Positions 8,205 through 30,048 of a stretch of DNA of 64,000 nt are shown here, piece after piece. The stretch covers positions 1,866 through 65,865 of the forward strand of contig CAOKHI010000001.1 of NCBI GenBank assembly GCA_948468275.1, read 5' to 3'. The notes under the pieces are model-generated. The model searched no databases and had not been told where the DNA came from. It saw only the letters and a program-made list of their open reading frames with translations. Position 1 is the stretch's first letter. Each line of letters begins with the position of its first letter. Source of the stretch: an uncultured Clostridium sp. (GTDB taxonomy: Bacteria; Bacillota; Clostridia; TANB77; CAG-508). The translations under genes and the position numbers were made by a program.

Positions 8205-8308
8205 AATTAAGGGTATAATCTCTTATAAAAGAGATTATAGGGACGTTATTAATCGTCCACTCTTATAAGAAATATCTAAGAAGGATAAAAAAGAAAAGGA
8301 GGATAAAA

Positions 8309-10393: not shown

Positions 10394-10519
10394 AAGTAAA
10401 ATAATAAAATTACCTAAAATGCTTGCATTTTTAATAATTTTATTATAAAATGCATATACTAACACAAATTAGTTATTAAATTTAAAAAATAAAATAAAAA
10501 AATAAGGAGGAATTCAAAA

Positions 10520-11722: not shown

Positions 11723-11739
11723 GATAAACAAGATATATA

Positions 11740-11775
11740 AATAGCAAGGATTCTCTTAATCCTTGCTATTTATTT
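11740..11775 (+). terminator. Rho-independent terminator after tuf
   Basis: AAATAGCAAGGATT ctctta AATCCTTGCTATTT followed by a T-rich tract. Confidence 0.65.
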
Positions 11776-11951
11776 TAATACTGCTAGTTTATACTAAAAA
11801 TAAAGATTTAGCAAAAAGTAATCTTTGTATGGAAAAACCAATATAGACTATTGAAAAAATGACGAAATTGCTCCTACATAATTACAATAATTTTAGCTAA
11901 AGTTAGTATTTGCTATGTAATAATAAAAAGAGTTTTAAAAAACTCTTTTTA

Positions 11952-12260
11952 CTAATCCCTATTCAATTCATTTTCATCTATTACAATATTTTTATTATTT
12001 TGTACTGCATCTTTTGCTTTTTTAACATCTACTTGAACATGTTGAATACCTTTTTGTTTATCTAAAATTATAGTTGCTTTACCTACAGTCTTAGACAATT
12101 CGTCTACAACACTTCCTTGACTTTTTTGAATTGTTTCAAGTTTCTCTACTTTTTTAGCCATGTTCTGATCTATTTCTACTCCTTTACTACTTGTAAGTTC
12201 TCTATAAAACATTGCTAAAGCCGAAAATATATTACTTTTACTTGCTTGTATATTACCCAT
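11952..12260 (-). CDS. Hypothetical small protein (102 aa), charged and coiled-coil-like
   Basis: ORF with RBS aggagga upstream. A bidirectional hairpin terminator at 11925-11950 lies downstream. No recognisable domain. Confidence 0.45.
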   Translation of the reverse strand: MGNIQASKSNIFSALAMFYRELTSSKGVEIDQNMAKKVEKLETIQKSQGSVVDELSKTVGKATIILDKQKGIQHVQVDVKKAKDAVQNNKNIVIDENELNRD

Positions 12261-12376
12261 ATAATTTTTCCTCCTATATTACTTAGGAAATTTCACCTCT
12301 TATTTTTTATTAACATATATTTATATTAACATAATTATCACAAGAAATCAAGCATTTTTAATATTTTCTTAAAAAT

Positions 12377-12505
12377 GTCAATAGGTAGTGTCAATAGGGA
12401 CGGGGCTTTTTGACACATAATTTTTTAAAATAATTATATATTTAGATATAACACACAAATATTAATTGAAAAAGTGTGTCAAAAAGCCCCGTCCCTATTG
12501 ACACT
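12377..12505. repeat. Perfect 32-bp inverted repeat (TAGTGTCAATAGGGACGGGGCTTTTTGACACA) separated by a 54-bp AT-rich spacer; also contains direct repeat TGTCAATAGG x2
   Basis: Arm 1 at about 12388-12419 and its exact reverse complement at about 12474-12505. Lies in the divergent region between 11952..12260 (-) and the 3D-domain gene (+). Confidence 0.7.
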
Positions 12506-12627
12506 ATGAGGAGTGGGAGGGCTACGGATGATGGAGATGAGATAAAAATTAAAAAAATAGTAATATTTTTTGTACAAGGAACATATAATGTAGTAATACC
12601 GGTAAATTTTAACGAAAAATTAAAATT

Positions 12628-12656
12628 TGACAAAGGGAAATATATAGTATATAATG
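12628..12656 (+). promoter_or_regulatory. Promoter TTGACA-N17-TATAAT for the 3D-domain gene
   Basis: Read directly from the sequence. Confidence 0.5.
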
Positions 12657-12690
12657 GCAATGTCACTTGAAGGAGGTAGATTATATATAT

Positions 12691-13692
12691 ATGTTAAAAA
12701 GTGAAAAAGCATCATTATCCGTAAGGAAAATTACATTTATTACAGTTTTATTACTACTATTTTTTAGTGTAGGTGTAATGGCAACAAGTGTACAAGTTAA
12801 TAATGTTAAAATTATTTTATCGAATAATTATGAAATGGATGTATTAACTACTAAGACTAAAGTTTCTGATATACTAAATGAAAATCATATTATAATATTA
12901 CCAGATGAAAATGTGGTTCCAAATCAAGACTCAGATATATCAGAAAATAAAACGATAACGATTACAAAAACATTAGAAAACGGAGAAAGTGTTATAAAAT
13001 TAGCAGAGGAAAACAATCAAGTAACAGTTGAGCAAATATTAGGAAATTATACACCAGTTGTAGAAAAAATTGTTACTGAACAGGTAGCAATACCTTTTGA
13101 AACGGTTACAAAAGATTCAGGAACTATTACAGGAGAAACTACAAATAAAGTTTTAAAAGAAGGAAAAGATGGATTAAAAGAAATAACATATAAAGCAAAA
13201 TACAAAAATGATGTAGAGATAGAAAGAATTGTACTATCAGAAATAGTAATTGCTGAACCAATAAATAAAGTAGTACAAGTAACTAAAACAGCTGTTACAT
13301 CAAGAGCCAATTCAACAAGAACGGTTTCAGATAATCCTGCAAAAAAGTCAACTAATACTTTAGCTAAAAGAGTAGAAGGAAAAACACCTGTAATAAAAAC
13401 ATTTAATACATCAGCATATTGTTCATGTTCAAAATGCTGTGGTAAAAGTACTGGTTTAACCTCATCAGGAGCAAAGGCAACATCATGGTATACATTAGCT
13501 GCTGGAAGTGGATATCCTATGGGAACAGTAATTTATATACCAAGTTTAAAAAATAAGCCAAATGGTGGTTGGTTTGTAGTACAAGATAGAGGTGGAGCAA
13601 TTTCTAATAACAAACTAGATGTATATTTGGGATCTCATACGCAGGCAATACAATTTGGAAGAAAAACTTTAGAAGCGTATGTGTATATGTAG
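12691..13692 (+). CDS. Secreted cell-wall protein with DUF348 repeats, G5 domain and C-terminal 3D domain (YabE / RpfB-like architecture)
   Basis: GGAGG RBS then ATG 12691. Signal peptide. Repeats VKIILSNNYEMDV... and TITKTLENGESVIKL... G5-like TGETTNKVLKEGKDGLKEITYKAKY. 3D motif DVYLGSHTQAIQFG. Confidence 0.7.
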   Translation: MLKSEKASLSVRKITFITVLLLLFFSVGVMATSVQVNNVKIILSNNYEMDVLTTKTKVSDILNENHIIILPDENVVPNQDSDISENKTITITKTLENGESVIKLAEENNQVTVEQILGNYTPVVEKIVTEQVAIPFETVTKDSGTITGETTNKVLKEGKDGLKEITYKAKYKNDVEIERIVLSEIVIAEPINKVVQVTKTAVTSRANSTRTVSDNPAKKSTNTLAKRVEGKTPVIKTFNTSAYCSCSKCCGKSTGLTSSGAKATSWYTLAAGSGYPMGTVIYIPSLKNKPNGGWFVVQDRGGAISNNKLDVYLGSHTQAIQFGRKTLEAYVYM

Positions 13693-13861
13693 TGATAAAT
13701 GAAGATATGGGAGATTGTAATGATTTTCCATATTTTTATATATAACATTATTTAAAATGGTTTAATTACAAAAAAAGATACAAAAATAATAAGATAAAAT
13801 TGTTTATGGAAATTAATATTATATTAAGAGCTAATATATAGTACTTAGAGCCAAAAAATGA

Positions 13862-13890
13862 TTGACTTAAAAAAACAAAAAATATATAAT
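13862..13890 (+). promoter_or_regulatory. Consensus sigma-A promoter TTGACT-N17-TATAAT for the interrupted surface-protein gene
   Basis: Exact hexamers with a 17-nt spacer. AAGGAG RBS and the ATG at 13934 follow. Confidence 0.6.
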
Positions 13891-13933
13891 TTGAATATGT
13901 TTTGAAAGTAAGAATAAACAAAGGAGAAGTATA

Positions 13934-14083
13934 ATGGTGAAAAAAATAGGAGTAAGAAATAATGATTATGTAAGTAAAGATAGTGCTATAACATTAATAG
14001 TATTAGTTATTACAATAATATTACATTATTACTATGGTATGAAATATAGTAATAGCAACGGTTTCCTTAAAGCAATAGTTTAA
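13934..14083 (+). pseudogene. 5' fragment of a surface-protein paralog (conserved N-terminal signal) truncated by insertion of the mobile element at about 14020
   Basis: MVKKIGVRNNDYVSKDSAITLIVLVITII then unrelated LHYYYGMKYSNSNGFLKAIV*. The downstream continuation (VLLILVGVTISLIEKNGVF...) resumes in frame at 23637. Confidence 0.7.
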
Positions 14084-14132
14084 AATATAGATACATATAA
14101 AAAGATTTTACAGAAATGTAAAGTCTTTTTTT

Positions 14133-14223
14133 ATATATATTTATATATGGGTGCAACAATCGGTACTTTTCATATTCAATATATACTTATATATATTTAT
14201 ATTAGGGTGCAATAATAGGTATT
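14133..14223. repeat. Two iteron-like direct repeats (ATATATTTATAT(AT/TA)GGGTGCAA(C/T)AAT(C/A)GGTA(C/T)T) upstream of the rep gene; candidate replication origin
   Basis: Repeat 1 at 14133-14167 and repeat 2 at 14191-14223. Located directly 5' of the Rep CDS. Confidence 0.5.
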
Positions 14224-14360
14224 CCTGCACCTTATTATTACCCATATCAGTATATCACAATACCCAATATGTGCAACCCTGTGTATTGCCATTATAGGTT
14301 ACCAAGTCCAAGTCTAATATTTCTATATCTATTTACCCAAGATAAGGGGGAAATAGAGAA

Positions 14361-15206
14361 ATGAAAGATAAGAAAAATAAGAGGCACGAGAATGATTATA
14401 CAAGAGTAATAAGGAATAGCCAGTATATTCCTATTAGAGATGATGATTTAGTAGTTAGGACAGACTTAGGCAGGTGTACCAAGATAAAGTACATCTCAAA
14501 TAAAAATAAGACTAATTGTATCAAGAAGAGAAGCAAGAATGAATATGTTGATACACGCACAGGTGAGTTAGGACAATATAACAATAATAAATTGACGAGT
14601 AGAAAGAGTGTAAATAGAAAATTAACAAAGTATGAGGAATTAGTGATATATAACTTTCAAGGCAATAAGAATGAGTTATTCATAACTTTAAATTGTAAAG
14701 AGCATATTACAGATATTGCAGACATCAAAAAGTTTTTTAAAAGATTTATAAAGAAACTAAGAAAAGATTATGAGGGGTTAGAGTACATCTATATGCCAGA
14801 GCAGACAGAGAATGGTTGTTGGCATATACACCTATTCATTAAATGCACCACCCTAGATTATTTCTTTATAAAGGCACAGAAACTATATGACTATTGGGAA
14901 CAAGGTGGTGTATATGTAATGACAAACAGAAACACATTCAAGACCCTAAACCATTCAAAAGACAAAAGGGACGATAGGTTGGAAAGATTTAGACACTTTC
15001 CGAAAGGTTGTAGAATGTGTAATGCAAGTAGAGGAATAAAGAAACCACCAAAACAAGTAAAGGTGTATGCAGAATGTGAGGAATTAGATACAAGTAAATA
15101 TAAAAGGTATATGACCAAAACATATAAAGTCAAGAATGAATTAACAAATAGGACAATCTCAATCATTTCTACCGAAATGTATAAAAAGATTGATAATGAT
15201 AAGTAG
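14361..15206 (+). CDS. rep: Rolling-circle replication initiator (HUH endonuclease, Rep_trans-like)
   Basis: 281 aa. HUH-like motif CWHIHLFIK. Basic N-terminus. Candidate catalytic Tyr region ...GGVYVMTNRNTF... Confidence 0.6.
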   Translation: MKDKKNKRHENDYTRVIRNSQYIPIRDDDLVVRTDLGRCTKIKYISNKNKTNCIKKRSKNEYVDTRTGELGQYNNNKLTSRKSVNRKLTKYEELVIYNFQGNKNELFITLNCKEHITDIADIKKFFKRFIKKLRKDYEGLEYIYMPEQTENGCWHIHLFIKCTTLDYFFIKAQKLYDYWEQGGVYVMTNRNTFKTLNHSKDKRDDRLERFRHFPKGCRMCNASRGIKKPPKQVKVYAECEELDTSKYKRYMTKTYKVKNELTNRTISIISTEMYKKIDNDK

Positions 15207-15354
15207 TCAAGATTAGTTTATATGAGATTCAAAAAAAGTAGGGTAAAATATTAATAGGCAGGTACTTTAAAAAGTACAATGCCAGAACTTTCATTTTTCC
15301 AATATTAACCTTTTTTAAATTATTATAACATTACTATTTGAGAGGGGTGGTTAT

Positions 15355-15600
15355 ATGCACTTAGTCGAGATTAGACAAGATTTACACGACACATCAGTTA
15401 AAACAATTATTTATGACAACAGCAGAATTTTAAGACAGTTAGAAACACTAGCAGAATTCACAACAGATTTAAGTTATGCAGATTGTGAGTATGTAACCAC
15501 CTTATTATCTAAAACAAGAACATTATTGAATAAGGCATATACAATATTCAAATTAAATAACGAGGAGGTGGAATCAAAAAATGGTAACAAAGAAAAATAA
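15355..15600 (+). CDS. Hypothetical protein (81 aa), element cargo
   Basis: ORF with RBS gagagggg upstream. Confidence 0.4.
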   Translation: MHLVEIRQDLHDTSVKTIIYDNSRILRQLETLAEFTTDLSYADCEYVTTLLSKTRTLLNKAYTIFKLNNEEVESKNGNKEK

Positions 15601-15826
15601 GAAACTAACAGAAGAATTAGTCAAAGTACAAATGCAACACATTGACCCAACGTTTTTGCAAGACGAATTTACACAAATGCAAGTTGCAATTTGTGAAATA
15701 ATAGAAAAATTACAAGAAACAAATTTAGACGAAACAACAATAAATGTTATTTATCAGTTAAATGAAATATGTAATGCAATCATAGACAAAATCGATTGGA
15801 ATATATCAGCACAAGATTTTTTTTAA
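15581..15826 (+). CDS. Hypothetical protein (81 aa), element cargo
   Basis: Own RBS GAGGAGGTG plus ATG. Overlaps the upstream ORF by 20 nt. Confidence 0.45.
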   Translation: MVTKKNKKLTEELVKVQMQHIDPTFLQDEFTQMQVAICEIIEKLQETNLDETTINVIYQLNEICNAIIDKIDWNISAQDFF

Positions 15827-15840
15827 GGGGGTATAGTTAA

Positions 15841-16377
15841 ATGAAAGAACTTGAAATAATAGAATTAAAAGAGATTCCAATCGAAGAAATTATATCATTT
15901 TCAAAGTTACAAACATCGCCATATATCACTATTTTAGACGATTTAAACTTTGGATTGTTTAATCAATTTGTAGTGTGGGCAGACGAATTGAAACTTGTAT
16001 ATTTCATAGTTAAAGGCACAAATAAGATTGCAGTCATTGGAAACAGAAAAGAGGCATTGAAAATAGCAAGATTACTACAAGTAAAAGCCCAAGTTATGTA
16101 CTATACATTATTAAAGCCACGAAAGATATTCGGCAAAGTTTATACACCAAAAAGGAATTCAAACTATGTAGTACAAGCAGTCAATGAAAAAGGAAAACTA
16201 ATTGACCCATTTATCAATACAGAAATAGAAACAGTAAAGTGCAGCACATTATCAAAATACATTTTTAGGAACTACAAATATTATATCAGTGTTAGAGGTA
16301 GTAAAAATAACAAGGTAGAGAATTTTCAGTTACTAAGAGATAAAAGACATAATTTTGTTTTAAGTGGAAAGATTTAA
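15841..16377 (+). CDS. Hypothetical protein (178 aa), element cargo
   Basis: RBS aagggggt before the ATG. Confidence 0.45.
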   Translation: MKELEIIELKEIPIEEIISFSKLQTSPYITILDDLNFGLFNQFVVWADELKLVYFIVKGTNKIAVIGNRKEALKIARLLQVKAQVMYYTLLKPRKIFGKVYTPKRNSNYVVQAVNEKGKLIDPFINTEIETVKCSTLSKYIFRNYKYYISVRGSKNNKVENFQLLRDKRHNFVLSGKI

Positions 16378-16647
16378 TGTATTTTGAAAATATCAAATAC
16401 AAATGCACAATCTCACATAACACGTTGCAACGAGGTTTGATTTTAAGACATTTTCAGTAACTAAGGTATAAAAGTATATGATTGAAAATATCAAACATAT
16501 TCACGAAAACCCTTGACAGATTTTAAAACTTATAACATAAAAATATTTTTTAAGAACTTTTTAAGAAGGAGTTGCAATCGAACAAACATTCTTATATACT
16601 TACCATAGTAAGCCTTACAAATATTTTTGATAAGGGGGTGAGTATAT

Positions 16648-17010
16648 ATGGAAACAGATACAGAAAAAGAGAAAGAAAGACAAAAAGAAATACTACAACA
16701 CTTCGACAATACATTTAAAACAAATACTATAAATCATATACAGTTAAATATGCCATTGTTGAAAGTGTTTTATGAATATTTTAGTGACGAGTTACACAAG
16801 TCTAGCCCAAGTTATGACGAATTGAGAAAAAAGTACATCGAGGTTTCCGACCTATTAGAGAATTCATTTACAGAGGGGCAACAAACATTATTTGAGAAAT
16901 TCTTTGAGATTGGTAGCAATATGTCAGTTGAAAGAAGTGAACAACTTTTCTATTTTGGTTACATACTAGCCAAAGAGTTAGAAAAAGAAAGCATAATTGA
17001 AAAGACATAA
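16648..17010 (+). CDS. Hypothetical protein (120 aa), element cargo
   Basis: RBS aagggggtg, then ATG. Followed by a terminator. Confidence 0.45.
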   Translation: METDTEKEKERQKEILQHFDNTFKTNTINHIQLNMPLLKVFYEYFSDELHKSSPSYDELRKKYIEVSDLLENSFTEGQQTLFEKFFEIGSNMSVERSEQLFYFGYILAKELEKESIIEKT

Positions 17011-17019
17011 AAATTAAGT

Positions 17020-17046
17020 AAGTAGAGGTTTCCCCACCTCTACTTT
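17020..17046 (+). terminator. Terminator hairpin AAGTAGAGGT ttcccc ACCTCTACTT
   Basis: Perfect 10-bp stem after the stop of 16648..17010. Confidence 0.5.
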
Positions 17047-17186
17047 AATTATAATCATATTTCTAGGTACGAGGTTAAGTTTCTTGGCAATTTAATATAC
17101 CACATCATATAAAGTTATATCTTGGGAATTAAATGTTTATTATAACAAAAAATAGGCATAATAAAAGAGTAAGTATAACACTTACC

Positions 17187-17414
17187 CTAGACCTCATATT
17201 TATAGTGATAAAAAGTAGCACCAATAAAAGACAATATAAACCATATTATGATTTCATAAGTAATTACATATTGTGTTGCAGTTAATGATTGATACAAAAT
17301 AACATTTTGAATTCCTAGTGCAGTTGTAATAAGATAAGCAATAGCAATGTTAATAAGTGAAAATACAAGACTAGCAAACAACTCTTTGATTTCATATTTA
17401 GACATAATACTCAC
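17187..17414 (-). CDS. Small two-TM membrane protein (75 aa), holin-like
   Basis: Two hydrophobic helices with a charged C-terminus. Divergent from the XRE regulator. Confidence 0.35.
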   Translation of the reverse strand: MSIMSKYEIKELFASLVFSLINIAIAYLITTALGIQNVILYQSLTATQYVITYEIIIWFILSFIGATFYHYKYEV

Positions 17415-17548
17415 CTCATTTCCTTAATGTATGAGAAATTATAACAAAATAAAACATACTTGTAAAGTACTACACAACAAGAGATTAACACAAAGGCACT
17501 ACATATTATACAATAATTTATGAATAAATAGGACAAGGGGTGTAGTAA

Positions 17549-17809
17549 ATGGCAAAGGCAAATAAGGAAATAAAAGAAATAATGCAAGTTGTAGATTATG
17601 GTGATATAGAATTAAAACTAGATAAATTGTTAAATGATAGAAATATATCGACTTATGAATTAAGCAACAAGGCACACATAAGATTCCAAACAATACAGAA
17701 TTTGAGGAAAAGACAAACAACAAGAATAGATTTTAATGTACTAGCACGAATTTGTTACAGTTTAGATTGCAAGGTGCAAGATGTAATCGAATATAAAGAG
17801 AAGAAATAG
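17549..17809 (+). CDS. XRE/Cro-family helix-turn-helix transcriptional regulator (86 aa)
   Basis: HTH ISTYELSNKAHIRFQTIQNLRKRQTT. RBS aaggggtg. Confidence 0.6.
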   Translation: MAKANKEIKEIMQVVDYGDIELKLDKLLNDRNISTYELSNKAHIRFQTIQNLRKRQTTRIDFNVLARICYSLDCKVQDVIEYKEKK

Positions 17810-17905
17810 TAAAGAAGAAAAGTCTTTACTATTTTATTTGTGTTGCCCATCTCTTTTAAAATATTATAATACTTTTAGTGTACTACTTGAAATATAATAA
17901 TTGTT

Positions 17906-18328
17906 ATGATAATATATCAATGTAGAATAATGTCGAATAATTGGGGGGTGGTAAATTTGGGTGTAGTTGACGACTTGGAAAAATTAAAACAGTTGAAAGA
18001 CACAGGAGCAATTACAGATACAGAATTTGAGATTGAAAAGTCAAAAATATTAAATGGCAGTATTAGCAATAATAACAATGCAGATAAGAAAGCAACAAAA
18101 GGAATGATTGGTTTCATATTAGGGTTAGTATCAATCATAGCGTGGTATATTCCTTTAATTGGTTACCCAGTTACAGTATGTGGAATCATATTTAGTAGTT
18201 TAGGTATGAATTCTAAAAATAAAGGTAAAGCAGTTGCAGGGTTAGTATTATCAATAATATTTTTGATTGTAACACTAATCAATAGTATATTAGGTGCAAT
18301 TCTAGTTAATATGTTTTACTATTTATAG
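17906..18328 (+). CDS. SHOCT-domain protein with C-terminal transmembrane segments
   Basis: LEKLKQLKDTGAITDTEFEIEKSKIL matches the SHOCT consensus, followed by 2-3 TM helices. Start is uncertain (a TTG/ATG candidate lies about 17930-17950). Confidence 0.45.
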   Translation: MIIYQCRIMSNNWGVVNLGVVDDLEKLKQLKDTGAITDTEFEIEKSKILNGSISNNNNADKKATKGMIGFILGLVSIIAWYIPLIGYPVTVCGIIFSSLGMNSKNKGKAVAGLVLSIIFLIVTLINSILGAILVNMFYYL

Positions 18329-18340
18329 TAAGGGGGAATT

Positions 18341-18733
18341 ATGGCAAGTAATTACAATGAATTAGGAAAACTTAAAGCCTTAAAAGATAATGGCACAATA
18401 ACGGATGCAGAATATGAAATACAAAAGTACAAAATCTTAAATACAACAGCAGAAACAAAAGGCAAAAAGAATAAGTCAAAAGTATTCTTTATTATTTCTA
18501 GCATTGGTACAGTAATAAGTATTGTATTAGGTGTAATTTCTTACTTGTGGCACGATTGTGATATGTATATTGATACATTACTTAATAATAAAAGTTTGAA
18601 TAGTGCAATATCTAACATTGTAGACGGCAGTTTCACAATACTAATTATAACCACTATTACAATGTTAATAGTAGGAATTGTATTTAAAATAAAGGAAAGA
18701 GGGGAAAGTAAAAATGTCAAAAAACATAATTAA
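18341..18733 (+). CDS. SHOCT-domain membrane protein, paralog of 17906 gene
   Basis: LGKLKALKDNGTITDAEYEIQKYKIL followed by TM helices. RBS aagggggaat. Confidence 0.5.
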   Translation: MASNYNELGKLKALKDNGTITDAEYEIQKYKILNTTAETKGKKNKSKVFFIISSIGTVISIVLGVISYLWHDCDMYIDTLLNNKSLNSAISNIVDGSFTILIITTITMLIVGIVFKIKERGESKNVKKHN

Positions 18734-19316
18734 AATTATAATAGTAATTGTAGTAGTAATAGCAGTAATTGTAGGTGGTATATTTGCATTTCAATTTATA
18801 TCTACAAATAGTAAAATAAAAGATACAGAGGAAAAATTAAATCAAATAAATGCAGAAGAATTAGAAAATAAACTAATTGAAAACTTGAAAAAGTCTAAAC
18901 TTTATGTAGGTGCAGTAAATGAAAGTGATAAAGAGTTGGTTTGGACAGAATTTAAGAATGTTAATGGTGTAGTAATTGCAAAAATTCAATCTACAAAAGG
19001 GGAATATGTAAATATACCTTGTTTTAAGATTGAAAGTGATAGTAATGGAAAATTTAAAAGCATAACCTTTGATAACTCACAAACTAATGGTATATTTGAT
19101 ATTAGTAAACAAGTGATAAATAGTGAATTTAAAAATGAATATAATATAGATACATTTATAGAAAACAATAGTTTATATAACAAACATTTTGTAATAGGTA
19201 GTGAACCACAAGAGATAGAAAGAAGTAGTCAAGTCTTTTTTGAAAGTATGACTAATCATATATTAGGTTATGTATCAATTTTAGAATGGTGGACTCCTAC
19301 TACATTTGGAATTTAA
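18714..19316 (+). CDS. Membrane-anchored hypothetical protein (200 aa)
   Basis: N-terminal TM IIKIIIVIVVVIAVIVGGIFAF. RBS aaggaaagagggg. Confidence 0.45.
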   Translation: MSKNIIKIIIVIVVVIAVIVGGIFAFQFISTNSKIKDTEEKLNQINAEELENKLIENLKKSKLYVGAVNESDKELVWTEFKNVNGVVIAKIQSTKGEYVNIPCFKIESDSNGKFKSITFDNSQTNGIFDISKQVINSEFKNEYNIDTFIENNSLYNKHFVIGSEPQEIERSSQVFFESMTNHILGYVSILEWWTPTTFGI

Positions 19317-19451
19317 AGAAGATCACACCCAATAATTTTAAGCAACAAATTATACTAGCCTACATATAAAAATGCCCCTCAATCAATTCTAGGGGCAAGA
19401 AAGTATAAAATAACAAAGGAAATGCAAACAACATCGCATTTCCTTTTAATA

Positions 19452-20006
19452 TTAAGCATTAGCATTTACAATTCTGTATAAACTTGTTTTTGAGATTCCA
19501 GTAGTTTTTATTATGTCATTTATAGAATAATCGTTTGAGTTATACATCTGTAAAATGGTTTCTTTTTTATCATTGAATTTATTAGGACGACCAAGTGTCT
19601 TGCCCCTTTTCTTAGCACTTTCTAAACCCTCTTTGGTACGTTGTGCAATCAAATCTCTTTCAAATTGAGATAAGCCAGCAAATATTGTAAATAGTAATTT
19701 TCCTTGTGGTGTAGTTGTATCTAACCAAGTTTCCTTTAATGATTTAATACTAGCACCCTTTTTCTCTATTATTTCTACTATATCAAATAAGTCCTTTGTA
19801 CTACGAGATAATCTTGTTAATTCTGTAATGATTACAACATCGCCCTCTCTTAAATTATCTAACATTCTATTTAATTCTATTCTTTCTCTTTTAGTGCCAG
19901 TTTCCTTTTCCTCGAAAATTCTTTCTACTCCATATTCATTTAGTATATCTGTTTGTCTGTCCAATTTTTGACCAGTAGTTGATACCCTTTTATAACCCAT
20001 TTTCAT
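19452..20006 (-). CDS. Small serine recombinase (resolvase/invertase family)
   Basis: RBS GGGAGG then ATG (MKMGYKRVSTTGQ..., catalytic Ser). C-terminal HTH. The ORF-track start at 20060 is unlikely. Confidence 0.8.
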   Translation of the reverse strand: MKMGYKRVSTTGQKLDRQTDILNEYGVERIFEEKETGTKRERIELNRMLDNLREGDVVIITELTRLSRSTKDLFDIVEIIEKKGASIKSLKETWLDTTTPQGKLLFTIFAGLSQFERDLIAQRTKEGLESAKKRGKTLGRPNKFNDKKETILQMYNSNDYSINDIIKTTGISKTSLYRIVNANA

Positions 20007-20206
20007 ATTATCTACCTCCCTGTGATTAGCCAGTGTACCAAAAATTAGTAACAAAGTCAAGCACTTTCGGTAATAATTTTTGAAACTTTTTTAAAATTTT
20101 ATAAAATATCATAAATTTGTTGTAATATCAGTATTTACAAAGAATAGTACCAAAATTACACATTAGCATATTTGAAAAGTACCATAAACAATCAATTTTG
20201 AAACTG

Positions 20207-20749
20207 TTACTTTTTAGGTATCATATTTCTAAAAAGTTTGTCTATTTCCCTTTGAACTTTAGCACTAGACATATAAACTACATCAGCCCTAGTTTCTTTA
20301 TCAAGAATGGTTTTATATTGGTTAGATACATTTTGTAATTCTTCAACAAATACATCTATTAAATTTGTATTACATATAATTTTATTCAATACATCTATTG
20401 CAGTTTCATTATTGATACTATCTAATTTCTTTTTAGAATCAGCACTTAACTTGTACTTGCCAACAATATTATCATTTCCAACATAAATTTCAGAAAAATC
20501 ACATCTATTAAGTAAACTATCAATAGAAATATCAAATAAATATGCAATGGCATATAGATTTACAGAGCCTATTCTTTGTTTATTATTGGGGTTTAAATAT
20601 CTTGTTATTTGTTTATCAGTAATTGATACATCACAAACTTCTTTTATTTTGTTAGATAATTCCTTTGGGGCATAGTCAAACATTTTCATAAGATTTTCTA
20701 AATTTTCAGCAAACTGTTTATTTGAGTACATTTTAAAGTCATTTTCCAT
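20207..20749 (-). CDS. CI-like repressor with an N-terminal XRE HTH domain (180 aa)
   Basis: HTH ...NKQFAENLENLMKMFDYAPKELSNKIKEVCDVSITDKQITRY... Divergently arranged to 20932 (a lysogeny-switch-like layout). Confidence 0.5.
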   Translation of the reverse strand: MENDFKMYSNKQFAENLENLMKMFDYAPKELSNKIKEVCDVSITDKQITRYLNPNNKQRIGSVNLYAIAYLFDISIDSLLNRCDFSEIYVGNDNIVGKYKLSADSKKKLDSINNETAIDVLNKIICNTNLIDVFVEELQNVSNQYKTILDKETRADVVYMSSAKVQREIDKLFRNMIPKK

Positions 20750-20931
20750 AAATTACAACCACCTTTTAAGACTTTTAATTCCACAATATTATCACATAAA
20801 GAATAATAAGTCAATAAATACAGACCTTTAATTCTAGGCAATAAAAATTAGTAAAACAATTTTATTAAGATAGTAATGAGGGGCAAGAAATATGCCTACT
20901 TAAAAATTAAAATATTAGGAGGTATGGAATT

Positions 20932-21279
20932 ATGAAAGCAGAAGAATTCCAAACAAAAGAAAAAGAACAGACAACAATCGCCGAGACATTTGATTTTGAA
21001 AACAAAAGAATAGGAGCATTTATTAAACACAGTTGCAGTGACGAGTTAGACATTAAGTTAAAATTTCTTGCAGATTATCAAGAAAAAAATAACATTGAAA
21101 AAATTGATTGGTTTTATACAGGGGAGAATGGAGATTACTGGGCATACTATAAAGCCATTACAGACATTTTTGAAGAAAACATAGATATTTTATTAGTAGT
21201 AGGAGACCTTGAAGAATTAACACCAGACTATGAAATACTAGAAAAAATTGAACAAAATGTTGAGTTAATAAGGGTGTAA
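20932..21279 (+). CDS. Hypothetical acidic protein (115 aa)
   Basis: RBS aggaggt then ATG. Confidence 0.45.
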   Translation: MKAEEFQTKEKEQTTIAETFDFENKRIGAFIKHSCSDELDIKLKFLADYQEKNNIEKIDWFYTGENGDYWAYYKAITDIFEENIDILLVVGDLEELTPDYEILEKIEQNVELIRV

Positions 21280-21955
21280 TTAAATGGTGGGGTAACCATT
21301 CCCCACTACCCCCAATTATGGAAAAGGAGCAAAAGGAAATGAAACAATTAAGAGTTAATAGAGATACAGACACAAAATCATTTTTCAATGAAATGTTTAT
21401 AAAAGACCTAAGCAAAAAAATGCAAAAAGTTTTTGTAGCAATGGAAAATAAACAATCAAAATAGAATTTACAAGCACATTGAAAAGTAAATATAAAAATT
21501 ACTAGATACAAAATAATGATACACTTACATAGCCATAGCACGAGCGAGATAAGACCGTCCCAAGCATTGGGTGTAAGTCTGTTGTAACAGATAGGTGCAA
21601 TTCCTGTGTACTACAATAAAGTAGTAGTTTAGTAATTAAAAAGAACCACACAAACCACACAAAACACACAATCAAACAAACCTAAAAAACAGATAAAAAA
21701 ATTACAGTAAATAACAATAGGTTGAGCAATCACTTATTGAGTAAGGTAGGTGTATTAGTATATGAAAACAGAATATAAAATAAAAGAGGAATTTTCACAA
21801 AATAAAGAAAATTCAAAGACATTAGAACAGATACTTGAAGAAATGTTTACAATATATTTAGTTGAAAAAGTTACCAAGGGGAGTTGAAAGCAACTCCCTT
21901 GTTGTTATATAATTCATATCAAGGAAACCTGTTGTTATTTGGAAAGAGGTTAATT

Positions 21956-23623
21956 ATGATAGTAATAACAAACCCAGAAAAATACAATGGGAAAACAGGG
22001 TTATATGAAAGACTTTCAAATGAAAAGTTAGAGGTTGTAAACATCAATGGTACAGTAACAAAAAAGGCAAATAAGCAAAGTGGTAGTATAGAAACACAAC
22101 AGTTGATACTTGAAAAATTTTGTGATAGCAATCATATTAGAGATTTTAAACACTACTACGACGATGGGTTTACTGGTGCAAACTTTGAAAGACCAAATTT
22201 TGAAAGACTTTTAGAGGACATTGAAAATGGAGAAATAAATTTAGTAATAGTAAAAGACTTGTCAAGGTTTGGAAGGTCGGACAAAGTACCAGATAGTGTA
22301 GAAGAATTTTTTGCCTTAAAAGGTGTAAGATTTATTGCAGTTGACGACAATATGGATACAGGCGAGGTTGCAGACATAAGTAAGATAGACGACGAGTTAC
22401 ATTTAAGAGCATTTTTCAATTCTTGGTATTTAAGAGATACATCAAAGAAGATAAGAAATGGAAAAAGAGCAAGAGCAGAACAAGGTAAGGTAATGGCAGT
22501 CTACCCTACTTATGGTTACCAAAAAGACCCAGCAGATAAAAACCACTACATTATAGACCCAGTAATAGCACCAACTGTTAAAAGAATGTTTGCAATTGCA
22601 ATAGAGGGAAAGACACCAACAGAAATAGGAACGATACTAACAGACGAGGGCATACCAGTACCAAGCGAAGTTGTAGGTAATAATCATACAAGAAAAGGTG
22701 CAGTCAAGAGAGGTTGGAACAGAAATACAGTTGTTAAAGTATTACAGAATGAAACTTATTTAGGTTGGGTAGTAAATGGTAATACAAGAAAAGTAAGTTA
22801 CAAAAATAAGAAAATAGTTAGTGTGCCAAAGGAAGACAGAATACTACGAAAAGGTATGCACGAGCCAATTATAGACGAGGCAACATTTAATCTAGTACAA
22901 AGTATGATTGAAAGCCGAAAGTCTACAAGGGTTAAGACCTATGATTGGTTATTAAAAGGTTTGGTATATTGTAAGGAATGTGGCAAGAAGTTAAGCATAG
23001 TAGCACAGAAACACCCACATAAAACAACATTCTATTTAAGGTGCAATACTTATGCCTGTAATACACATTTGGGGTTATGCACACCACATAGCAATAACTA
23101 TGAAAAGTTAGAAAATGCAGTTATAACACAAATCAAAAAGAGGTGTATGGAATTCTTACAAGAGGAAAGGTATCAGCAAATAGCCAACAAATCAAAAGAC
23201 AAGTTACTAAACAATAGATTTAGTTTAAAAAATCAAATACTATTACAAGAAAAGAAACTGGAAGATACAAACAACATTATTGATAAACTTTACAAGGAAA
23301 AATGTTTAGGTAAATTGCAAGAAGAAGATTTTACTAGAATGTATCTATTATATACAGAAGATAGAAAGGCAATAAAGGAATCAATAGAAAAACTTAAACA
23401 AGAGGAAGAAGAAAGTAAGACACCTAAAAAAGTTGATATAATGAAGATAGTTAAAGAGTTTGTAAGTTTCAAAGAGATAACACGAGAGATGTTAGTTTCA
23501 TTGGTAGATAGAATAGAAATAGCAGAAAATAAAGAAATAACTATTTACTATAATTTCAGTATTTTAAATGTTGCAGAGATACAAGACCAACAAGAAGAAA
23601 GTAATTTACAAGTAGTTGGTTAA
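21956..23623 (+). CDS. Large serine recombinase (integrase) of the element
   Basis: RBS GGAAAGAGG then ATG 21956. Catalytic motif GLYERLSN..., resolvase domain, then a recombinase/zinc-ribbon domain (CKECGKKL...C...C) and a coiled coil. The gene abuts attR. Confidence 0.8.
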   Translation: MIVITNPEKYNGKTGLYERLSNEKLEVVNINGTVTKKANKQSGSIETQQLILEKFCDSNHIRDFKHYYDDGFTGANFERPNFERLLEDIENGEINLVIVKDLSRFGRSDKVPDSVEEFFALKGVRFIAVDDNMDTGEVADISKIDDELHLRAFFNSWYLRDTSKKIRNGKRARAEQGKVMAVYPTYGYQKDPADKNHYIIDPVIAPTVKRMFAIAIEGKTPTEIGTILTDEGIPVPSEVVGNNHTRKGAVKRGWNRNTVVKVLQNETYLGWVVNGNTRKVSYKNKKIVSVPKEDRILRKGMHEPIIDEATFNLVQSMIESRKSTRVKTYDWLLKGLVYCKECGKKLSIVAQKHPHKTTFYLRCNTYACNTHLGLCTPHSNNYEKLENAVITQIKKRCMEFLQEERYQQIANKSKDKLLNNRFSLKNQILLQEKKLEDTNNIIDKLYKEKCLGKLQEEDFTRMYLLYTEDRKAIKESIEKLKQEEEESKTPKKVDIMKIVKEFVSFKEITREMLVSLVDRIEIAENKEITIYYNFSILNVAEIQDQQEESNLQVVG

Positions 23624-23636
23624 ACAATAGTAATAA

Positions 23637-24398
23637 AATAATATTATTACTATAATAGTACTATTAATATTAGTAGGTGTTACAATAAGTTTGATAGAAA
23701 AAAATGGAGTTTTTGAGTATGCAAAGGTGGCAACAGAAGAAACAAATAAACAAACAGCAACAGAAAAGATGAATTTAAAGATAACATCTACTCAGATGAA
23801 TATTTATGCAGAAGAACAAAGACTTCCAACACTCCAAGAATTTGCAGACGAACTATGTGAAGATAATGAAATAGAATATGTTGAAGTAAAAAGTAAAATA
23901 ATAGCAAGTGTAGCTAAAATAGATGTTGGAGAAGCACAGACAATATTTACAAAGTTAAAAGAGTATCCATATGAGTTTGAAATAAATTCTTCACTTCAGT
24001 TAGCAAGTATAGATGGTGTGAAAATTGCAACTAATAATACTGCTAAAGTAGGACAAAAGAAATATTCAACAGAGGAAACAATTGTGGGTAGTTGGATAGA
24101 TAATAAACCAATTTATCAAAAAACTTATGTTTTAACTGATTTATCAAAAAATGATGGACTGTTTATTACAATAGATGAAAATGCTAAGAATTATATAGAT
24201 AAATTTATACACAGTGAGTTTAGAATGACAAGAGCTATTGAGAATGTTCAATTGGCTTCATCATATGATTATGATGCTAATTCTCATTTTGCAGAGATAT
24301 GGTTTTCAAATGAAAAGGGATTATATATATTTGGAGCATTTGAATATACAGCATTAGAGTGTCATGTTACAGTACAATATACAAAGGTTACAGATTAA
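23637..24398 (+). pseudogene. 3' portion of the interrupted surface-protein paralog (continues from 13934 fragment)
   Basis: The frame is open from 23637 (NNIITIIVLLILVGVTISLIEKNGVFEYAK...). It is homologous to residues about 18-45 of the 4784 protein. The ORF track calls a TTG start at 23691. Confidence 0.65.
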
Positions 24399-24499
24399 AC
24401 TAAAAGTAAAAGAATATTTGACTTAGGAAACGAAGAAAAATAATATGAAGATATTTTGAAATAATGAAGAAAATAAAAGAAAACAAAGGAGTAGTGAAG

Positions 24500-25595
24500 A
24501 TGTTATATAAAGTTGAAATTAGAAAGACGAAAAATAATAGACGTTTAGGAAAACAAGAAGCAATAACTTTAATTGCATTAGTAATTACAATAATACTACT
24601 ACTTATATTATCAGGAGTAGTAATAAATTTAAGTATTCGGTCAAAATGGGCTTTTAGCTAGAGGAGAAAATGTAACTAATATGTGGAAAGAAGCAAGTAT
24701 AGATGAGCAGAAAAAATTTAATGAGCTATATGAAGAATTAGAAAATATGGAAATAGAGATACCACAATTACCTTATGAAGGAGTAGGATACAAATTTATT
24801 TATGATGGTACTTTAGGGGAAAGTGGTGTAGATGGAAAAAACATGTGTAATGATATTACTGGAGGATGGTCTACAAAAAGGACGAACTATGCTTTAAAAG
24901 GTGGAACATTTGATGGAAAAAAATTTGAGTGGTATCATGGTTGGCTTTTTACAAATGATAAAATAAATTTAACAAATTATAAAAAAATATATGTGTCATC
25001 GAATATAGTAGAAAATGGATCTGTTATATATAATTATGTTTATGGTTGGAGTAAACAATATGCTAATAATGGAGAAGTTTATCCATATCCAAATAATAAT
25101 CCATTAATAAATGTAGAAGCAGGTGGAAAAAAAGATTTTGCATATTATGAAAATAAAAGAACTATGGGATTAATTGATATACCAGAAAAATGGGAAGGAT
25201 ATATTGGTATATATTCATGTCATTCAGCAGGCAATACTTATTATTATGATTATCAAACATCTTATGTAAGAAATTTTTGCAATTCAGGCAGATATATAGA
25301 TGTATATAGTATAGTAGCTTTAAAAGAAGATGATTGGAAAGCATGGATAAAATTAGCTAAAATAGATAGTGATCAATTCACATCACTAAGTGAAATATTA
25401 GAAAATGAAGAAGTATTACAAAAGGCTTTTAGTAAGAGGAAAGCAAATGAGTATTTATTAAAGTGCTCAGGAACATTAATGGTTGAAATATTAAAAAATG
25501 ATAAATCATATAAATTAATTCCAAAAGAATTAATTGCAGAAATGCAAAACAATGAAAATTGGAATCATTTTATGAAAGTATGTGAGCTAAAATAG
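24500..25595 (+). pseudogene. Third paralog of the surface-protein family, interrupted by a +1 frameshift at about 24638
   Basis: ORF 24464..24661 carries the conserved N-terminus EAITLIALVITIILLLILSGVVINLSI. Frame +1 continues with GQNGLLARGENVTNMWKEAS... (compare GENGLFAKT in the 4784 protein). An extra C sits in attCggt. Confidence 0.65.
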
Positions 25596-25645
25596 AAAAA
25601 ATTTTAATTTTTTCTATTTTAGCTTACTCAGTACAAATTTGGTTA

Positions 25646-25826
25646 GTTACAGTTCACAGCGTATATAATAAAATCCGCTACGGCTAAGTAATATATTTTA
25701 TTTTTTCATTTCGCCCTCCAAGCTCACGGGTATTCCCCCGCCTCAATGGGCTGTCGGGTCTTCATTACAAAATAAAATATATTACTTAGTCTTCGCTACT
25801 TACTGCTATTGTCTGTGAATTGTAAC
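25646..25826 (+). repeat. About 180-bp GC-rich repeat element with terminal inverted repeats (MITE-like), copy 1
   Basis: TIR gttacagttcacag ... ctgtgaattgtaac. Near-identical copies at 43995-44174 (+) and 52853-53033 (-). Flanked by the direct repeat TTTGGTTAG. Confidence 0.75.
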
Positions 25827-25866
25827 TTTGGTTAGGAGAAAATCTGAACAAAAAAAATTTTGGATC

Positions 25867-25896
25867 TTGACAAGCCCTAAGGGAAAATGATATAAT
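25867..25896 (+). promoter_or_regulatory. Promoter TTGACA-N18-TATAAT in the rpoB upstream leader
   Basis: Direct read. Followed by about 400 nt of leader with hairpins (26026-26074, 26196-26215). Confidence 0.45.
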
Positions 25897-26316
25897 CATT
25901 AAACTATAAATTACGTTTAGAAACAAAAATTTTGTTAAACATTTTAAATCTTATACTAAATCTTAAAAATAGTAAGGGTGGTCAAGATTAAAATAGTAAT
26001 CCAGATAACAAATTTTTAGATAGAAAAAAGGTACGTTGGTAAAAAAAATGTGTATTTACCAACATGCCTTTTTGTTGCCGTAATTTAAGACTTATGTAAA
26101 TTAAATAAGAAGAGGAATTAAATTTTGTATAGAAACTAGTTTGTTTTGGTTTAAGAGCAGTATAACTAAAATGAGTAGTGGAAACTTAATTTAAGAAGGA
26201 CTTCTTTTTTATATAAAGTTGGATGTTATAGATTAGTTTAGAAACTCTTATGTGTGTTCTAATTTAAGATTTCAAATTTCCAATAACTGCTTAATTTATT
26301 TTATGAGGTGATTTTT

Positions 26317-29300: not shown

Positions 29301-30048
29301 AACACCAGTATTTGATGGGGCAAAAGAGGCTGAAATAACAGAGTTGTTAGAAAAAGCAGGACGTACACCAGATGGAAAAACTATACTATATGATGGACGA
29401 ACAGGAGAAATGTTTGATAAGCCAGTTACTGTAGGTGTAATGTATATGTTAAAACTACATCACTTAGTAGACGACAAAATACATGCACGTTCAACAGGAC
29501 CATACTCACTAGTAACACAACAACCATTAGGAGGAAAGGCACAATTTGGAGGACAACGTTTTGGAGAAATGGAAGTTTGGGCATTAGAAGCATATGGAGC
29601 AGCACATACATTACAAGAAATATTAACTGTAAAATCAGATGATGTAGTGGGAAGAGTAAAAACATATGAAGCAATAGTAAAAGGAGAAAATGTTCCAGAA
29701 CCAGGAGTTCCAGAAAGCTTTAAAGTATTAATAAAAGAACTACAAAGTTTAGGGTTAGATGTGCGTTTGTACTCTGAGGATGATAGAGAGCTAGAATTAA
29801 AAGAAAACATAGAAGAAGGTATAGACATAAATTTAGAAAGAGAAAAACAACGAAATATATTATTAGATGATGAATTATCAGAAAACTATATAGAAGAAGA
29901 AACAGAAGAATTAATAGAAGAAGATGCTGATGAATTGTTTGAAGACTCATTACTAGATGATGAAGATGAAATGTTGTTAGATGATACAGATTTAGGTGTA
30001 GATAATCTTATGAATGATGAAGATATATTAGATGATGACAATGAGTAA
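26317..30048 (+). CDS. rpoB: DNA-directed RNA polymerase subunit beta
   Basis: RBS GAGGTG then TTG 26317 (alternatively GTG 26308). Conserved throughout. Highly acidic C-terminal tail. Confidence 0.95.

Follow-up and report, generated by a model that had tools for sequence, protein, structure and literature searches.

A 9.6-kb insert in a leader-type gene of an uncultured Clostridia bacterium, probably a Tn4451/Tn5397-like integrative element of a modular family

In a 64,000-nucleotide stretch of DNA from an uncultured Clostridia bacterium (contig CAOKHI010000001.1; the whole stretch is hereafter called the window), two open reading frames (ORFs) that resemble the two ends of one gene lie about 9.6 kb apart, and the DNA between them encodes recombinases and a replication-type protein. 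We asked what this insert is, how it came to lie inside the gene, and whether its removal would give the gene back. An earlier note on this DNA had proposed that an integrated element splits a surface-protein gene, and had offered three identities for it: a phage satellite, a small prophage remnant or an integrative mobilizable element (IME). We conclude that the insert, which occupies positions 14014..23650, is probably an integrative element like Tn4451 and Tn5397, inserted by its own TndX/TnpX-type recombinase at the dinucleotide AC in an attB site that encodes the leader of the interrupted protein. The element is possibly mobilizable, and the family to which it belongs is modular.

The split gene, its empty site and the point of exchange

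The ORF listing and a direct reading of the letters gave a 49-aa ORF on the forward strand (13934..14083) and an open frame at 23637-24398. When 13934..14013 was joined to 23651..24398 through the core sequence present at both ends, a single 275-aa ORF without interruption resulted. In a homologue search that covered 5.8 billion proteins, this rebuilt ORF matched an intact 275-aa protein, P0001, at 99% identity over 100% of the length (E 6e-169), and the product of 13934..14013 is identical to the N-terminus of P0001. The gene for P0001 sits on a metagenome contig, L001, from a near-identical strain in which the insert is absent. Upstream, L001 has the genes of the window, a minus-strand 102-aa ORF and after it the gene for a G5/3D protein; the gene that comes next downstream is likewise shared, and the DNA is 99.8% identical to the window on the left flank and 99.6% on the right. 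L001 carries the whole gene between the same flanks, and the earlier proposal of an integrated element that splits one gene is borne out.

The attachment site could also be reconstructed, as had been claimed: attB rebuilt from attL and attR is identical to the L001 sequence over the 62 bp compared, and reads TTAATAGTATTAGTTATT-AC-TATAATAGTACTATTAATATTAG. The L001 locus is the natural empty site of the element. Because the rebuilt attB equals this naturally empty site, precise excision would restore the ORF, and an exact reversal of integration at AC should return the 275-aa gene. As the gene now stands, its 5' part is closed by a tail and stop codon encoded by the element (Table 1), and the same tail is appended to other host genes, for example to give a 127-aa ORF on contig L002. 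An in-frame TAA (23634-36) lies upstream of the 3' part, and since the earliest possible start there is the TTG at 23691, a product of the 3' part would be without the membrane helix.

The 12-bp core that the earlier note had seen at the junctions is present at both, as ATTACAATAATA at 14009-14020 and as ATTACTATAATA at 23646-23657, and it is commoner than chance: the window contains the pattern ATTACWATAATA 3 times where 0.31 would be expected, none of 100 shuffles reached 3, and the third copy, at 24584, is inside a neighbouring paralogue. To locate the boundaries we surveyed junctions on public contigs that carry the exact Rep-like protein of the insert (22 contigs) or its exact 555-aa recombinase (4 contigs), and extended the survey to contigs with recombinases 97%, 85% and 77% identical. 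All left junctions read as variable host sequence followed by AC-AATAATATTACATT… or AC-AATAATATTACATTATTACTATGG… (the window and L004, L010 and L006, L011, L008, L099, L002), and all right junctions as …AATAATATTATT-AC followed by variable sequence (the window and L092, L093, L101 and L103, L102, L104, L099 and L100). The host bases 5' of AC differ by site at the left, and at the right the host side varies directly 3' of AC, the first base being T, C, G or A. Across 8 or more other sites occupied by the same element or a near-identical one, AC is the one sequence that every junction contains. Additionally, comparison with L001 showed core position 6 to be T in the empty site and in attR and A in attL; since this A must derive from the element, the exchange took place to the left of position 6. 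The crossover dinucleotide is therefore probably the AC at 14012-13 and 23649-50. We rejected the 12-bp core itself as the crossover, because its position 6 differs between attL and attR and the other junctions share AC alone; it probably reflects similarity of attB and attP around the 2-bp AC. With these boundaries the insert is 9,637 bp long, including one AC.

The attP site deduced from the two ends, ATAGTAATAAAATAATATTATT-AC-AATAATATTACATTATTACTAT, is about 46 bp long; the predicted junction may also be written …ATAGTAATAAAATAATATTATTACAATAATATTACATTATTACTAT… and CAATAGTAATAAAATAATATTATT-AC-AATAATATTACATTATTACTATGG. Its arms of 22 bp each are reverse complements at 20 of 22 positions around AC, and the longest inverted repeat that a repeat finder reported for the region joins the two insert ends (14007-14038 with 23624-23655, 32 nt, 81%). 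In the relative on contig L096, whose recombinase is 77% identical, both attP arms share a matching change of GTAAT to GTCAT, as would be expected if each arm were read by one subunit of a dimer. The motif TACTAT stands, counted from the centre, at positions 17-22 of each attP arm and at 9/10-14/15 of each attB arm of the window. In structures of serine integrases, the motif bound by the zinc ribbon lies at a greater distance from the centre in attP than in attB, and by analogy the outward shift of TACTAT would fit this binding model.

The recombinase and its targets

The gene that abuts attR, as had been noted earlier, encodes a large serine recombinase of 555 aa, from an ATG at 21956 to position 23623. 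It matched Resolvase (PF00239, E 4.5e-18), Recombinase (PF07508, E 1.1e-20), the zinc ribbon PF13408 (E 5.4e-12) and DUF4368 (PF14287, 26.3 bits against a cut-off of 25, E 9.1e-6), the last of which is likewise precomputed for the homologues P0121-P0123. Resolvase and Recombinase domains were thus confirmed by profile, whereas the Rep-like protein described below was confirmed solely as PF23343. The recombinase shares 33% of 529 aligned residues with TndX of Tn5397 (E 4e-88), with YERLS, which contains the catalytic serine, aligned to YSRLS, and its top match in the PDB is the catalytic domain of TnpX from Tn4451 (2MHC, E 3.5e-18). These likenesses point to a distant member of the TndX/TnpX-like clade. 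In a clade of multi-targeting recombinases, the TndX-like transposases among them, Durrant et al. (2022, PMC10083194) found DUF4368 in 63%, as against 0.73% of site-specific recombinases.

The element occupies many sites. A 100%-identical recombinase is found in a second leader-type gene, on L093 (…TIIVLLILAAITISLVLGDNG…), recombinases of 97% identity are found at three further sites (L101/L103, L102 and L104), and the left end with a 100%-identical Rep-like protein abuts three further leader-type genes (L010, L011 and L008). Counted by right junction, recombinases at least 97% identical occupy five distinct targets; the identical Rep end meets host DNA at four different left junctions. Six of the eight extra junctions read as the leader (K)GITL(I/V)AL(V/I)(I/V)T followed, across the crossover, by II(V/L)L(L/I)IL, and in all leader-type junctions the element has one orientation and AC falls in a Thr codon. 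More distant recombinases are found elsewhere: the element on L002, with a recombinase 68% identical, lies in an unrelated 157-aa ORF, and that on L114 lies inside a gene of the Mn-catalase family close to spoIIP. Since many of the targets belong to one protein family, the enzyme may be better described as targeting a multi-copy motif.

The leader is a property of that family: the motif …ITLIALVIT/IIVLLIL… (the slash marks the crossover) recurs in 111 of the 120 homologues of the target protein, and some homologues bear F5/8-type-C, laminin-G or tail-collar domains. An AlphaFold 2 (AF2) model of the 275-aa protein (mean pLDDT 72) has two long helices, of which the N-terminal one is hydrophobic, together with a small mixed domain and, at the C-terminus, a beta-sandwich. 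A fold search gave weak matches only, at E 1e-3 or higher, to baseplate and fibre-tip beta-sandwiches of phage P1; in our reading of the model, these are insufficient to name the protein, which we describe as a predicted membrane-anchored protein. The earlier label of surface protein is plausible in view of the membrane helix and the beta-sandwich, but no Pfam or NCBIfam profile, for pilins or otherwise, matched. An identity as a type IV pilin or pseudopilin found no support: the N_methyl hidden Markov models (HMMs) for the prepilin motif, with G at -1 and E at +5, gave no match, the target leader (SA-ITLIV, with KG-ITLIALVIT as the family consensus) is without the Glu+5 of type IV pilins, and the likeness consists of a charged leader and a long hydrophobic helix only.

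Two further family members are present in the window. The one at 4784..6364 (526 aa) is intact, with the same leader, a long C-terminal region rich in Gly, Ser and Asn, and no match in Pfam or NCBIfam. The other, at 24464..25595 (leader …QEAITLIALVITIILLLILSGV…), had also been taken for an intact paralogue, but a frameshift near 24630 splits it into ORFs of 65 and 304 aa, and the same 65/304 split is found on an independent contig, L092. This second paralogue contains, at 24587, a near-perfect and unoccupied attB-like site, …GCATTAGTAATT-AC-AATAATACTAC….

The order of genes in the window over 7050..30048 is rpsL-rpsG-fusA-tuf, about 2.5 kb of lineage-specific genes together with the leader-family genes, and then rpoB. 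In 80 related rpoB loci we found no homologue of the target gene within 10 kb and none of any element protein; the closest species representatives are 74-83% identical over the N-terminal 500 residues of RpoB. From this comparison the block of leader genes near rpoB seems to be lineage-specific.

The contents of the insert and its relatives

The features of the insert and its junctions are collected in Table 1. Every ORF of the window copy is intact. Insert proteins were scanned against Pfam, PHROGs, NCBIfam and PADLOC, together with a six-frame scan for Walker-A motifs, hydropathy analysis and an Rfam search over 13000-26300.

Table 1. Features of the insert, its junctions and the interrupted gene (window coordinates).
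Feature	Position	Strand	Basis
Candidate promoter of the interrupted gene, TTGACT-17-TATAAT	13862..13890	+	Consensus scan, 11/12 match; such sites are no commoner than chance in this AT-rich region
5' part of the interrupted gene, through AC; codons M1..T27, MVKKIGVRNNDYVSKDSAITLIVLVIT	13934..14013	+	In-frame joining
attL: host half-site, AC (14012-14013), element half-site AATAATATTACATTATTACTAT	13990..14038	.	Element side identical at all other left junctions, host side varies
Element-encoded tail and stop closing the truncated 49-aa product, …IILHYYYGMKYSNSNGFLKAIV*	14014..14083	+	ORF 13934..14083
Strong hairpin with T-run, probable terminator	14085..14144	+	Inverted repeat I1; -20.9 kcal/mol, z = -6.9
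Two 35-nt direct repeats, TTATATATATTTATAT..GGGTGCAAyAATmGGTA, candidate initiator-binding repeats	14131..14221	+	Direct repeat D2, 89% identical, 56-nt spacing, two copies only
Rep-like HUH protein, 281 aa	14361..15206	+	PF23343, E 3.3e-11; phrog_3419
Two 81-aa ORFs (15355..15600 and 15581..15826)	15355..15826	+	ORF listing; no family match
Conserved basic 178-aa core protein	15841..16377	+	Homologue clusters; no informative fold
120-aa protein	16648..17010	+	DUF6809 (PF20648), E 0.001, below cut-off
75-aa protein, two hydrophobic segments	17187..17414	-	Hydropathy; no family match
Cro/C1-type helix-turn-helix regulator, 86 aa	17549..17809	+	PF13443 (HTH_26), E 1.3e-16
SHOCT protein with two transmembrane segments	17906..18328	+	PF09851, hydropathy
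SHOCT protein with two transmembrane segments	18341..18733	+	PF09851, hydropathy
200-aa protein, N-terminal membrane anchor	18714..19316	+	Hydropathy
Small serine recombinase, resolvase/invertase type	19452..20006	-	PF00239, E 1.9e-42, and HTH_7; phrog_125 DNA invertase, E 2e-63
180-aa possible regulator	20207..20749	-	Weak phrog_8 match, E 1.2e-3
Small ORFs of 115, 48 and 41 aa upstream of the large recombinase	20932..21887	+	ORF listing
Large serine recombinase, 555 aa	21956..23623	+	Pfam domains; 4 contigs with the exact product
attR: element half-site ATAGTAATAAAATAATATTATT, AC (23649-23650), host half-site	23624..23672	.	Element side identical at 7 other right junctions
3' part of the interrupted gene, …IIVLLILVGVTISLIEKNGVF… to stop	23651..24398	+	In-frame joining, P0001, L001

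The hairpin at the left end is kept in relatives on L096 and L099 that have a different initiator gene. For this reason we read it as a terminator and rejected it as a Rep-specific origin; it would probably stop incoming host transcription and, in a circular form, transcription of the recombinase gene. The two direct repeats beyond it agree with the iterons that had been reported upstream of rep.

The Rep-like protein scored 43.8 bits against PF23343 (REP_ORF2-G2P; cut-off 27.8). Its motif I, NELFITLN (family form NELFITL[TN]), and its HUH motif, WHIHLF, are present and aligned with those of its homologues. By tblastn the nearest annotated relatives, at 24-32% identity, are the sole large genes of Firmicutes plasmids of 1.5-2.5 kb: Staphylococcus epidermidis pLF23/2 (annotated "replicative protein"), Anoxybacillus pAnox1, a plasmid of Lactobacillus sakei, Exiguobacterium pEXIG02 and Caldicellulosiruptor pYA01-2. 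A more distant homologue, the only match in the phage collection, is the Rep of an inovirus that encodes Zot. Among GTDB species representatives, IMG/VR and the JGI metagenomes there was no close relative, the one match being of 25% identity.

Of the two 81-aa ORFs that follow, the first is conserved throughout the element family. The 178-aa core protein has 157 homologue clusters of 73-94% identity, all about 178 aa; its AF2 model (pLDDT 52.5) gave generic ferredoxin-like matches in a fold search, and a profile search of the PDB gave none. Homologues of the 120-aa protein in relatives carry the DUF6809 annotation, a family of which we found no mention in the literature searched. The 75-aa protein is missing from several relatives, and its earlier label as holin-like found no support in any library searched. 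Of the Cro/CI-like regulators in the divergent switch proposed earlier, only one had a profile match; it is divergent from the 75-aa ORF, with a divergent promoter-like pair at 17438-17514, and a double switch is at most putative. Pfam does bear out both SHOCT membrane proteins (29.1 and 27.7 bits against a cut-off of 27) and the small resolvase, for which the probable ATG start gives about 184 aa, the length of the homologue in relatives. The membrane-protein block at 17906..19316 has homologues in some relatives and none in others. The 180-aa ORF is divergent from the operon whose last gene encodes the large recombinase, and relatives have non-homologous HTH_3 proteins in its place. Of the small ORFs of that operon, the 41-aa one is 66-85% conserved.

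The acidic 115-aa ORF (20932..21279) is 35% identical over 93 aa (E 2e-6) to a 145-aa protein of L002 that consists of a resolvase catalytic domain only (15897..16334), and proteins of this resolvase-only type occupy the same position in relatives. The 115-aa product might be a degenerate, recombinase-derived accessory or directionality factor. A 29-nt inverted repeat (18559-18587 and 20506-20534, 86% complementary) flanks the small resolvase; it lies within two coding sequences and may be due to chance. We rejected an invertible segment between its copies (18559, 20506), as all relatives share one orientation.

No insert protein matched a capsid, tail, terminase, portal, lysis, conjugation or defence family in the four libraries, and no type IV secretion system or coupling protein was matched. 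For ten element proteins PADLOC returned noise only. No Walker-A nucleoside triphosphatase (NTPase) motif is present in any of the six frames of the insert, Rfam gave no match across the region searched, and a megablast of the whole insert gave no match in 50,697 phage or 72,556 plasmid records.

Comparison of the relatives on L002, L096, L099, L105, L106, L114 and L118 revealed a common backbone with swapped initiator, cargo and integrase modules. In three of them (L096 1538..3130, L099 309..1871 and L106 509..2083) the Rep-like gene is replaced by one for an unrelated protein of 520-530 aa with two C-terminal repeats (…KMWCGATV…LGIN…) and a sub-threshold match to Phage_CRI (E 0.11); this protein may be an alternative initiator. 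As to the membrane-protein block, some relatives keep it, some have a different one and some have none. Two relatives (L105 1..9625 and L118 1..9273) carry a 402-aa tyrosine integrase and an HTH_17 protein instead of the serine recombinase and adjoin tRNA-Leu(taa), with the same backbone of Rep-like protein, 81-, 84- and 178-aa ORFs, DUF6809 and SHOCT proteins. In these two, a short ORF with a Phage_integrase domain lies where the window has its resolvase. L114 (309..6951) holds a member of about 6 kb in which the large serine recombinase is frameshifted into 257 + 270 aa. In the L002 element (9340..19321) a Rep-like protein 100% identical to that of the window is paired with the recombinase of 68% identity, which indicates that replication and integration modules recombine; the left arm of its attP is slightly different (…AATATCATA-AC). 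The modularity, the polymorphic insertion and the identical copies at different loci are together typical of a mobile family that is active or was so recently.

The identity of the element and known systems compared

We propose the following course of events. A recombinase of the TndX/TnpX type would join the attP of about 46 bp to an attB in the codons for the N-terminal hydrophobic helix of the 275-aa protein, crossing over at the AC of the Thr codon in …LVIT/IIVLL…. Insertion splits the gene, the left end of the element supplying a stop codon and the strong hairpin, a probable terminator, and leaves the 3' part without its start and without the membrane helix. Near-identical recombinases accept many related AT-rich sites, mostly the same leader stretch of paralogous or homologous genes, and because so many related targets are used the element acts as a site-preferring transposon and not as a single-site prophage. 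The same reaction at AC, run in reverse, would rebuild the gene exactly; enzymes of the TnpX/TndX type excise without a directionality factor, and Tn4451 is independent of one (PMC5704250), so the window element may need none either. The Rep-like HUH protein, together with the two repeats upstream of its gene, could maintain or process the excised circle, and the small serine resolvase could resolve multimers of that circle. Spread between cells might take place with the help of another element, as in IMEs; such a helper would be needed because the insert holds no genes for transfer or packaging.

Several observations weigh against parts of this proposal. The block N-[IV]-G-A-Y-[LV]-S-A-Y-L (motif III), found in 6/6 outgroups (the five plasmid Reps and the inovirus Rep), contains two tyrosines that correspond to the catalytic tyrosines of phiX174-type initiators, and the window protein has lost this YxxxY block by deletion. 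It is therefore doubtful that the protein acts in rolling-circle replication or as a relaxase, unless Y178, Y247, Y255 or Y274, the tyrosines downstream of the HUH motif that are invariant in the element-borne subfamily, substitutes for the block. Of the earlier description of a rolling-circle Rep, then, PF23343, motif I and HUH remain, but not the YxxxY of the homologues, and we have not filed the protein as a proven rolling-circle initiator. Four element-borne relatives (L105, L114, L116 and L118), which are only 45-49% identical, share this deletion; it is therefore of old date within a conserved subfamily and no sign of recent decay. Y178 stands where homologues have a conserved Leu or Met, beside an invariant Trp, and might be a relocated catalytic residue. 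Mobilization is an assumption, as no relaxase, oriT, coupling protein or transfer function was identified in the insert, and the five conserved core proteins without an assigned function could point to a different lifestyle.

The tally of targets bears a similar reservation. The published definition of a multi-targeting recombinase (PMC10083194) asks that each recombinase cluster, drawn at 90% identity, be found in more than 3 clusters of targets, drawn at 50%; our targets were counted by junction and not as such clusters, several being homologues of one family, and at the left junctions on L008, L010 and L011 the recombinase was not seen on the same contig. Of the two forms that the earlier note had asked for, the empty site was found in L001, but an exact search for the attP junction gave no match in the JGI metagenomes and IMG/VR. 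Excision may occur all the same, as the carrier samples are ENA and Logan assemblies, which a search by DNA pattern does not reach. The fetched contigs of 8.7-9.7 kb (L099, L105 and L106) have no terminal overlap and are integrated copies, not circles. With no circular or attP sequence found, population polymorphism is the sole argument for present-day activity of the recombinase.

Of the three identities first offered, the integrative (and possibly mobilizable) element is the one that the evidence favours, whereas the prophage and satellite readings are unsupported, because the insert lacks phage structural, packaging, lysis, conjugation and NTPase genes. A satellite, PICI-like (in the manner of phage-inducible chromosomal islands) or other, would lie dormant under the helix-turn-helix repressor until induced by a helper, replicate by means of Rep and be packaged in helper capsids. 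Such a life would suit the small size, the integrase at one end, the divergent regulators and the initiator with its repeats; the conserved small core proteins could interfere with a helper, and integrases are interchangeable in satellite families too. We nevertheless consider a satellite quite unlikely, given that PHROGs and Pfam returned nothing for terS, capsid remodelling, cpm/ppi-like, portal, head or packaging functions, that the insert has neither a primase/helicase nor an NTPase motif, that no relative was found in IMG/VR or the GenBank phage collection, and that the recombinase is of the transposon-like TndX/TnpX clade; satellite functions might still be encoded by the ORFs without a family match. 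An integrated filamentous, inovirus-like phage, with the small membrane proteins as virion or assembly components, is the least probable of the readings and hardly credible to us. PF23343 does also cover the inovirus G2P, the only phage-collection match is an inovirus Rep, and several small membrane proteins in an element of 6-10 kb would be in keeping; against this, the insert encodes no Zot/pI ATPase and no Walker-A in six frames, whereas Zot is encoded by the inovirus that was matched, the Reps of tiny plasmids are much closer relatives of the Rep-like protein, and in the family the membrane proteins are missing from some members and Rep is replaced by an unrelated protein in others.

The interruption of a coding sequence that precise excision would rebuild also recalls elements domesticated by the host, such as skin, SPbeta or gin, which are excised developmentally in a terminal cell type. 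The insert shares with gin (PMC5595907) its non-phage nature and its possession of more than one recombinase gene, and the 6-kb member on L114 splits a Mn-catalase gene beside spoIIP. The insertion is, however, polymorphic between near-identical strains (99.6-99.8%), the same element is found in many different genes, the target is not a known sporulation gene, and the use of tRNA-Leu with a tyrosine integrase by relatives is the behaviour of selfish elements; we think domestication very unlikely. To the same low degree we credit a decaying prophage remnant or inactive relic, in which an old integration has become immobile and the gene a pseudogene. No excised form was detected in the JGI metagenomes or IMG/VR, the Rep-like protein is without the catalytic tyrosine motif, and the L114 recombinase is frameshifted, all as a relic would have it. 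Yet the window ORFs are all intact and include no phage genes, 100%-identical Rep and recombinase occur at different loci in different samples, the empty-site flanks are 99.6-99.8% identical, implying recent gain or loss, and the tyrosine deletion is common to the conserved relatives of 45-49% identity, as befits an old functional state.

A further reading, which we hold to be unlikely without being far-fetched, is that of an undescribed family of 6-10 kb elements of uncultured Clostridia in which the core (the tyrosine-less HUH Rep, two proteins of about 81-84 aa, the 178-aa protein and DUF6809) embodies a novel strategy of maintenance or transfer, for instance by way of an unrecognized helper. 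Members with a serine recombinase would use leader-coding sequence as a dispersed landing pad and turn genes off and on in a manner like phase variation. If this is true, reversible insertion and excision would switch single members of the leader family off and on.

To return to the Tn4451/Tn5397-like element, we believe that the locus is of value in three respects. It offers a delimited natural set that is directly testable and is the type of part sought in genome engineering: the recombinase with its AC crossover, the symmetric attP (about 46 bp), a single empty attB that has been verified, and a range of natural alternative attB half-sites. The family that it reveals is modular and frequent among uncultured gut-type Clostridia, and no member turned up in the collections of reference phages, plasmids and species representatives that were searched. 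It is also a case of a mobile element for which a motif conserved at the level of protein, the membrane helix at the N-terminus of the products of a multigene family, serves as an integration site in many copies. The biology is unsurprising in kind, as gene-interrupting serine-recombinase elements and multi-targeting recombinases are both established; the family is apparently undescribed, while the kind of element itself is known.

Among known systems the closest are Tn4451/Tn4453, with TnpX, and Tn5397, with TndX, which share with the window element the recombinase domain set, a 2-bp crossover and the use of several alternative AT-rich targets. Tn4451 is a small non-conjugative element with a second, resolvase-like gene. 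The crossover dinucleotide of the Tn4451/Tn5397 type is GA, whereas the window element crosses at AC. The window element differs further in having no Mob/Pre relaxase or resistance gene but a Rep-like HUH protein with upstream repeats, in the position of its recombinase gene at the right end, reading outward, and in the concentration of its targets in one protein-coding motif; with only about 33% identity to TndX, its recombinase is a distant member of the clade. The mycobacteriophage/prophage-like element phiRv1, too, has a large serine recombinase and integrates into a repeated element with several attB copies. The window target, by contrast, is the conserved protein-coding leader of a gene family and not repetitive DNA, and the element is not phage-like.

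The multi-targeting recombinases (PMC10083194) are alike in the presence of DUF4368, in that recombinases at least 97% identical are found in several target genes, and in a target motif longer than a simple AT-rich stretch; the window recombinase may be set apart from them by the many targets that belong to one protein family. Skin, SPbeta with SprA, and gin of Bacillus cereus (PMC5595907, PMC5499854) are likewise serine-recombinase elements in coding sequence with exact reconstitution possible, and gin is, as here, a non-phage element with several recombinase genes (PMC5595907), whereas the window element is polymorphic, occupies many loci, and has no link to sporulation and no identified directionality factor. 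Among the IMEs of Firmicutes, serine recombinases that disrupt genes and relaxases that resemble rolling-circle replication (RCR) initiators have both been described (PMC5704250). The likeness to these IMEs extends to size, to a single serine integrase that disrupts a dispensable gene, to the lack of mating-pore genes (PMC5704250, PMC5357655) and possibly to an RCR-type initiator of phage or plasmid kind in place of a canonical relaxase. The window element differs from them in that it has no TcpA coupling protein, its Rep-like protein is without the tyrosine motif and its mobilization is suggested by analogy, and its host belongs to an uncultured Clostridia lineage and is not a streptococcus.

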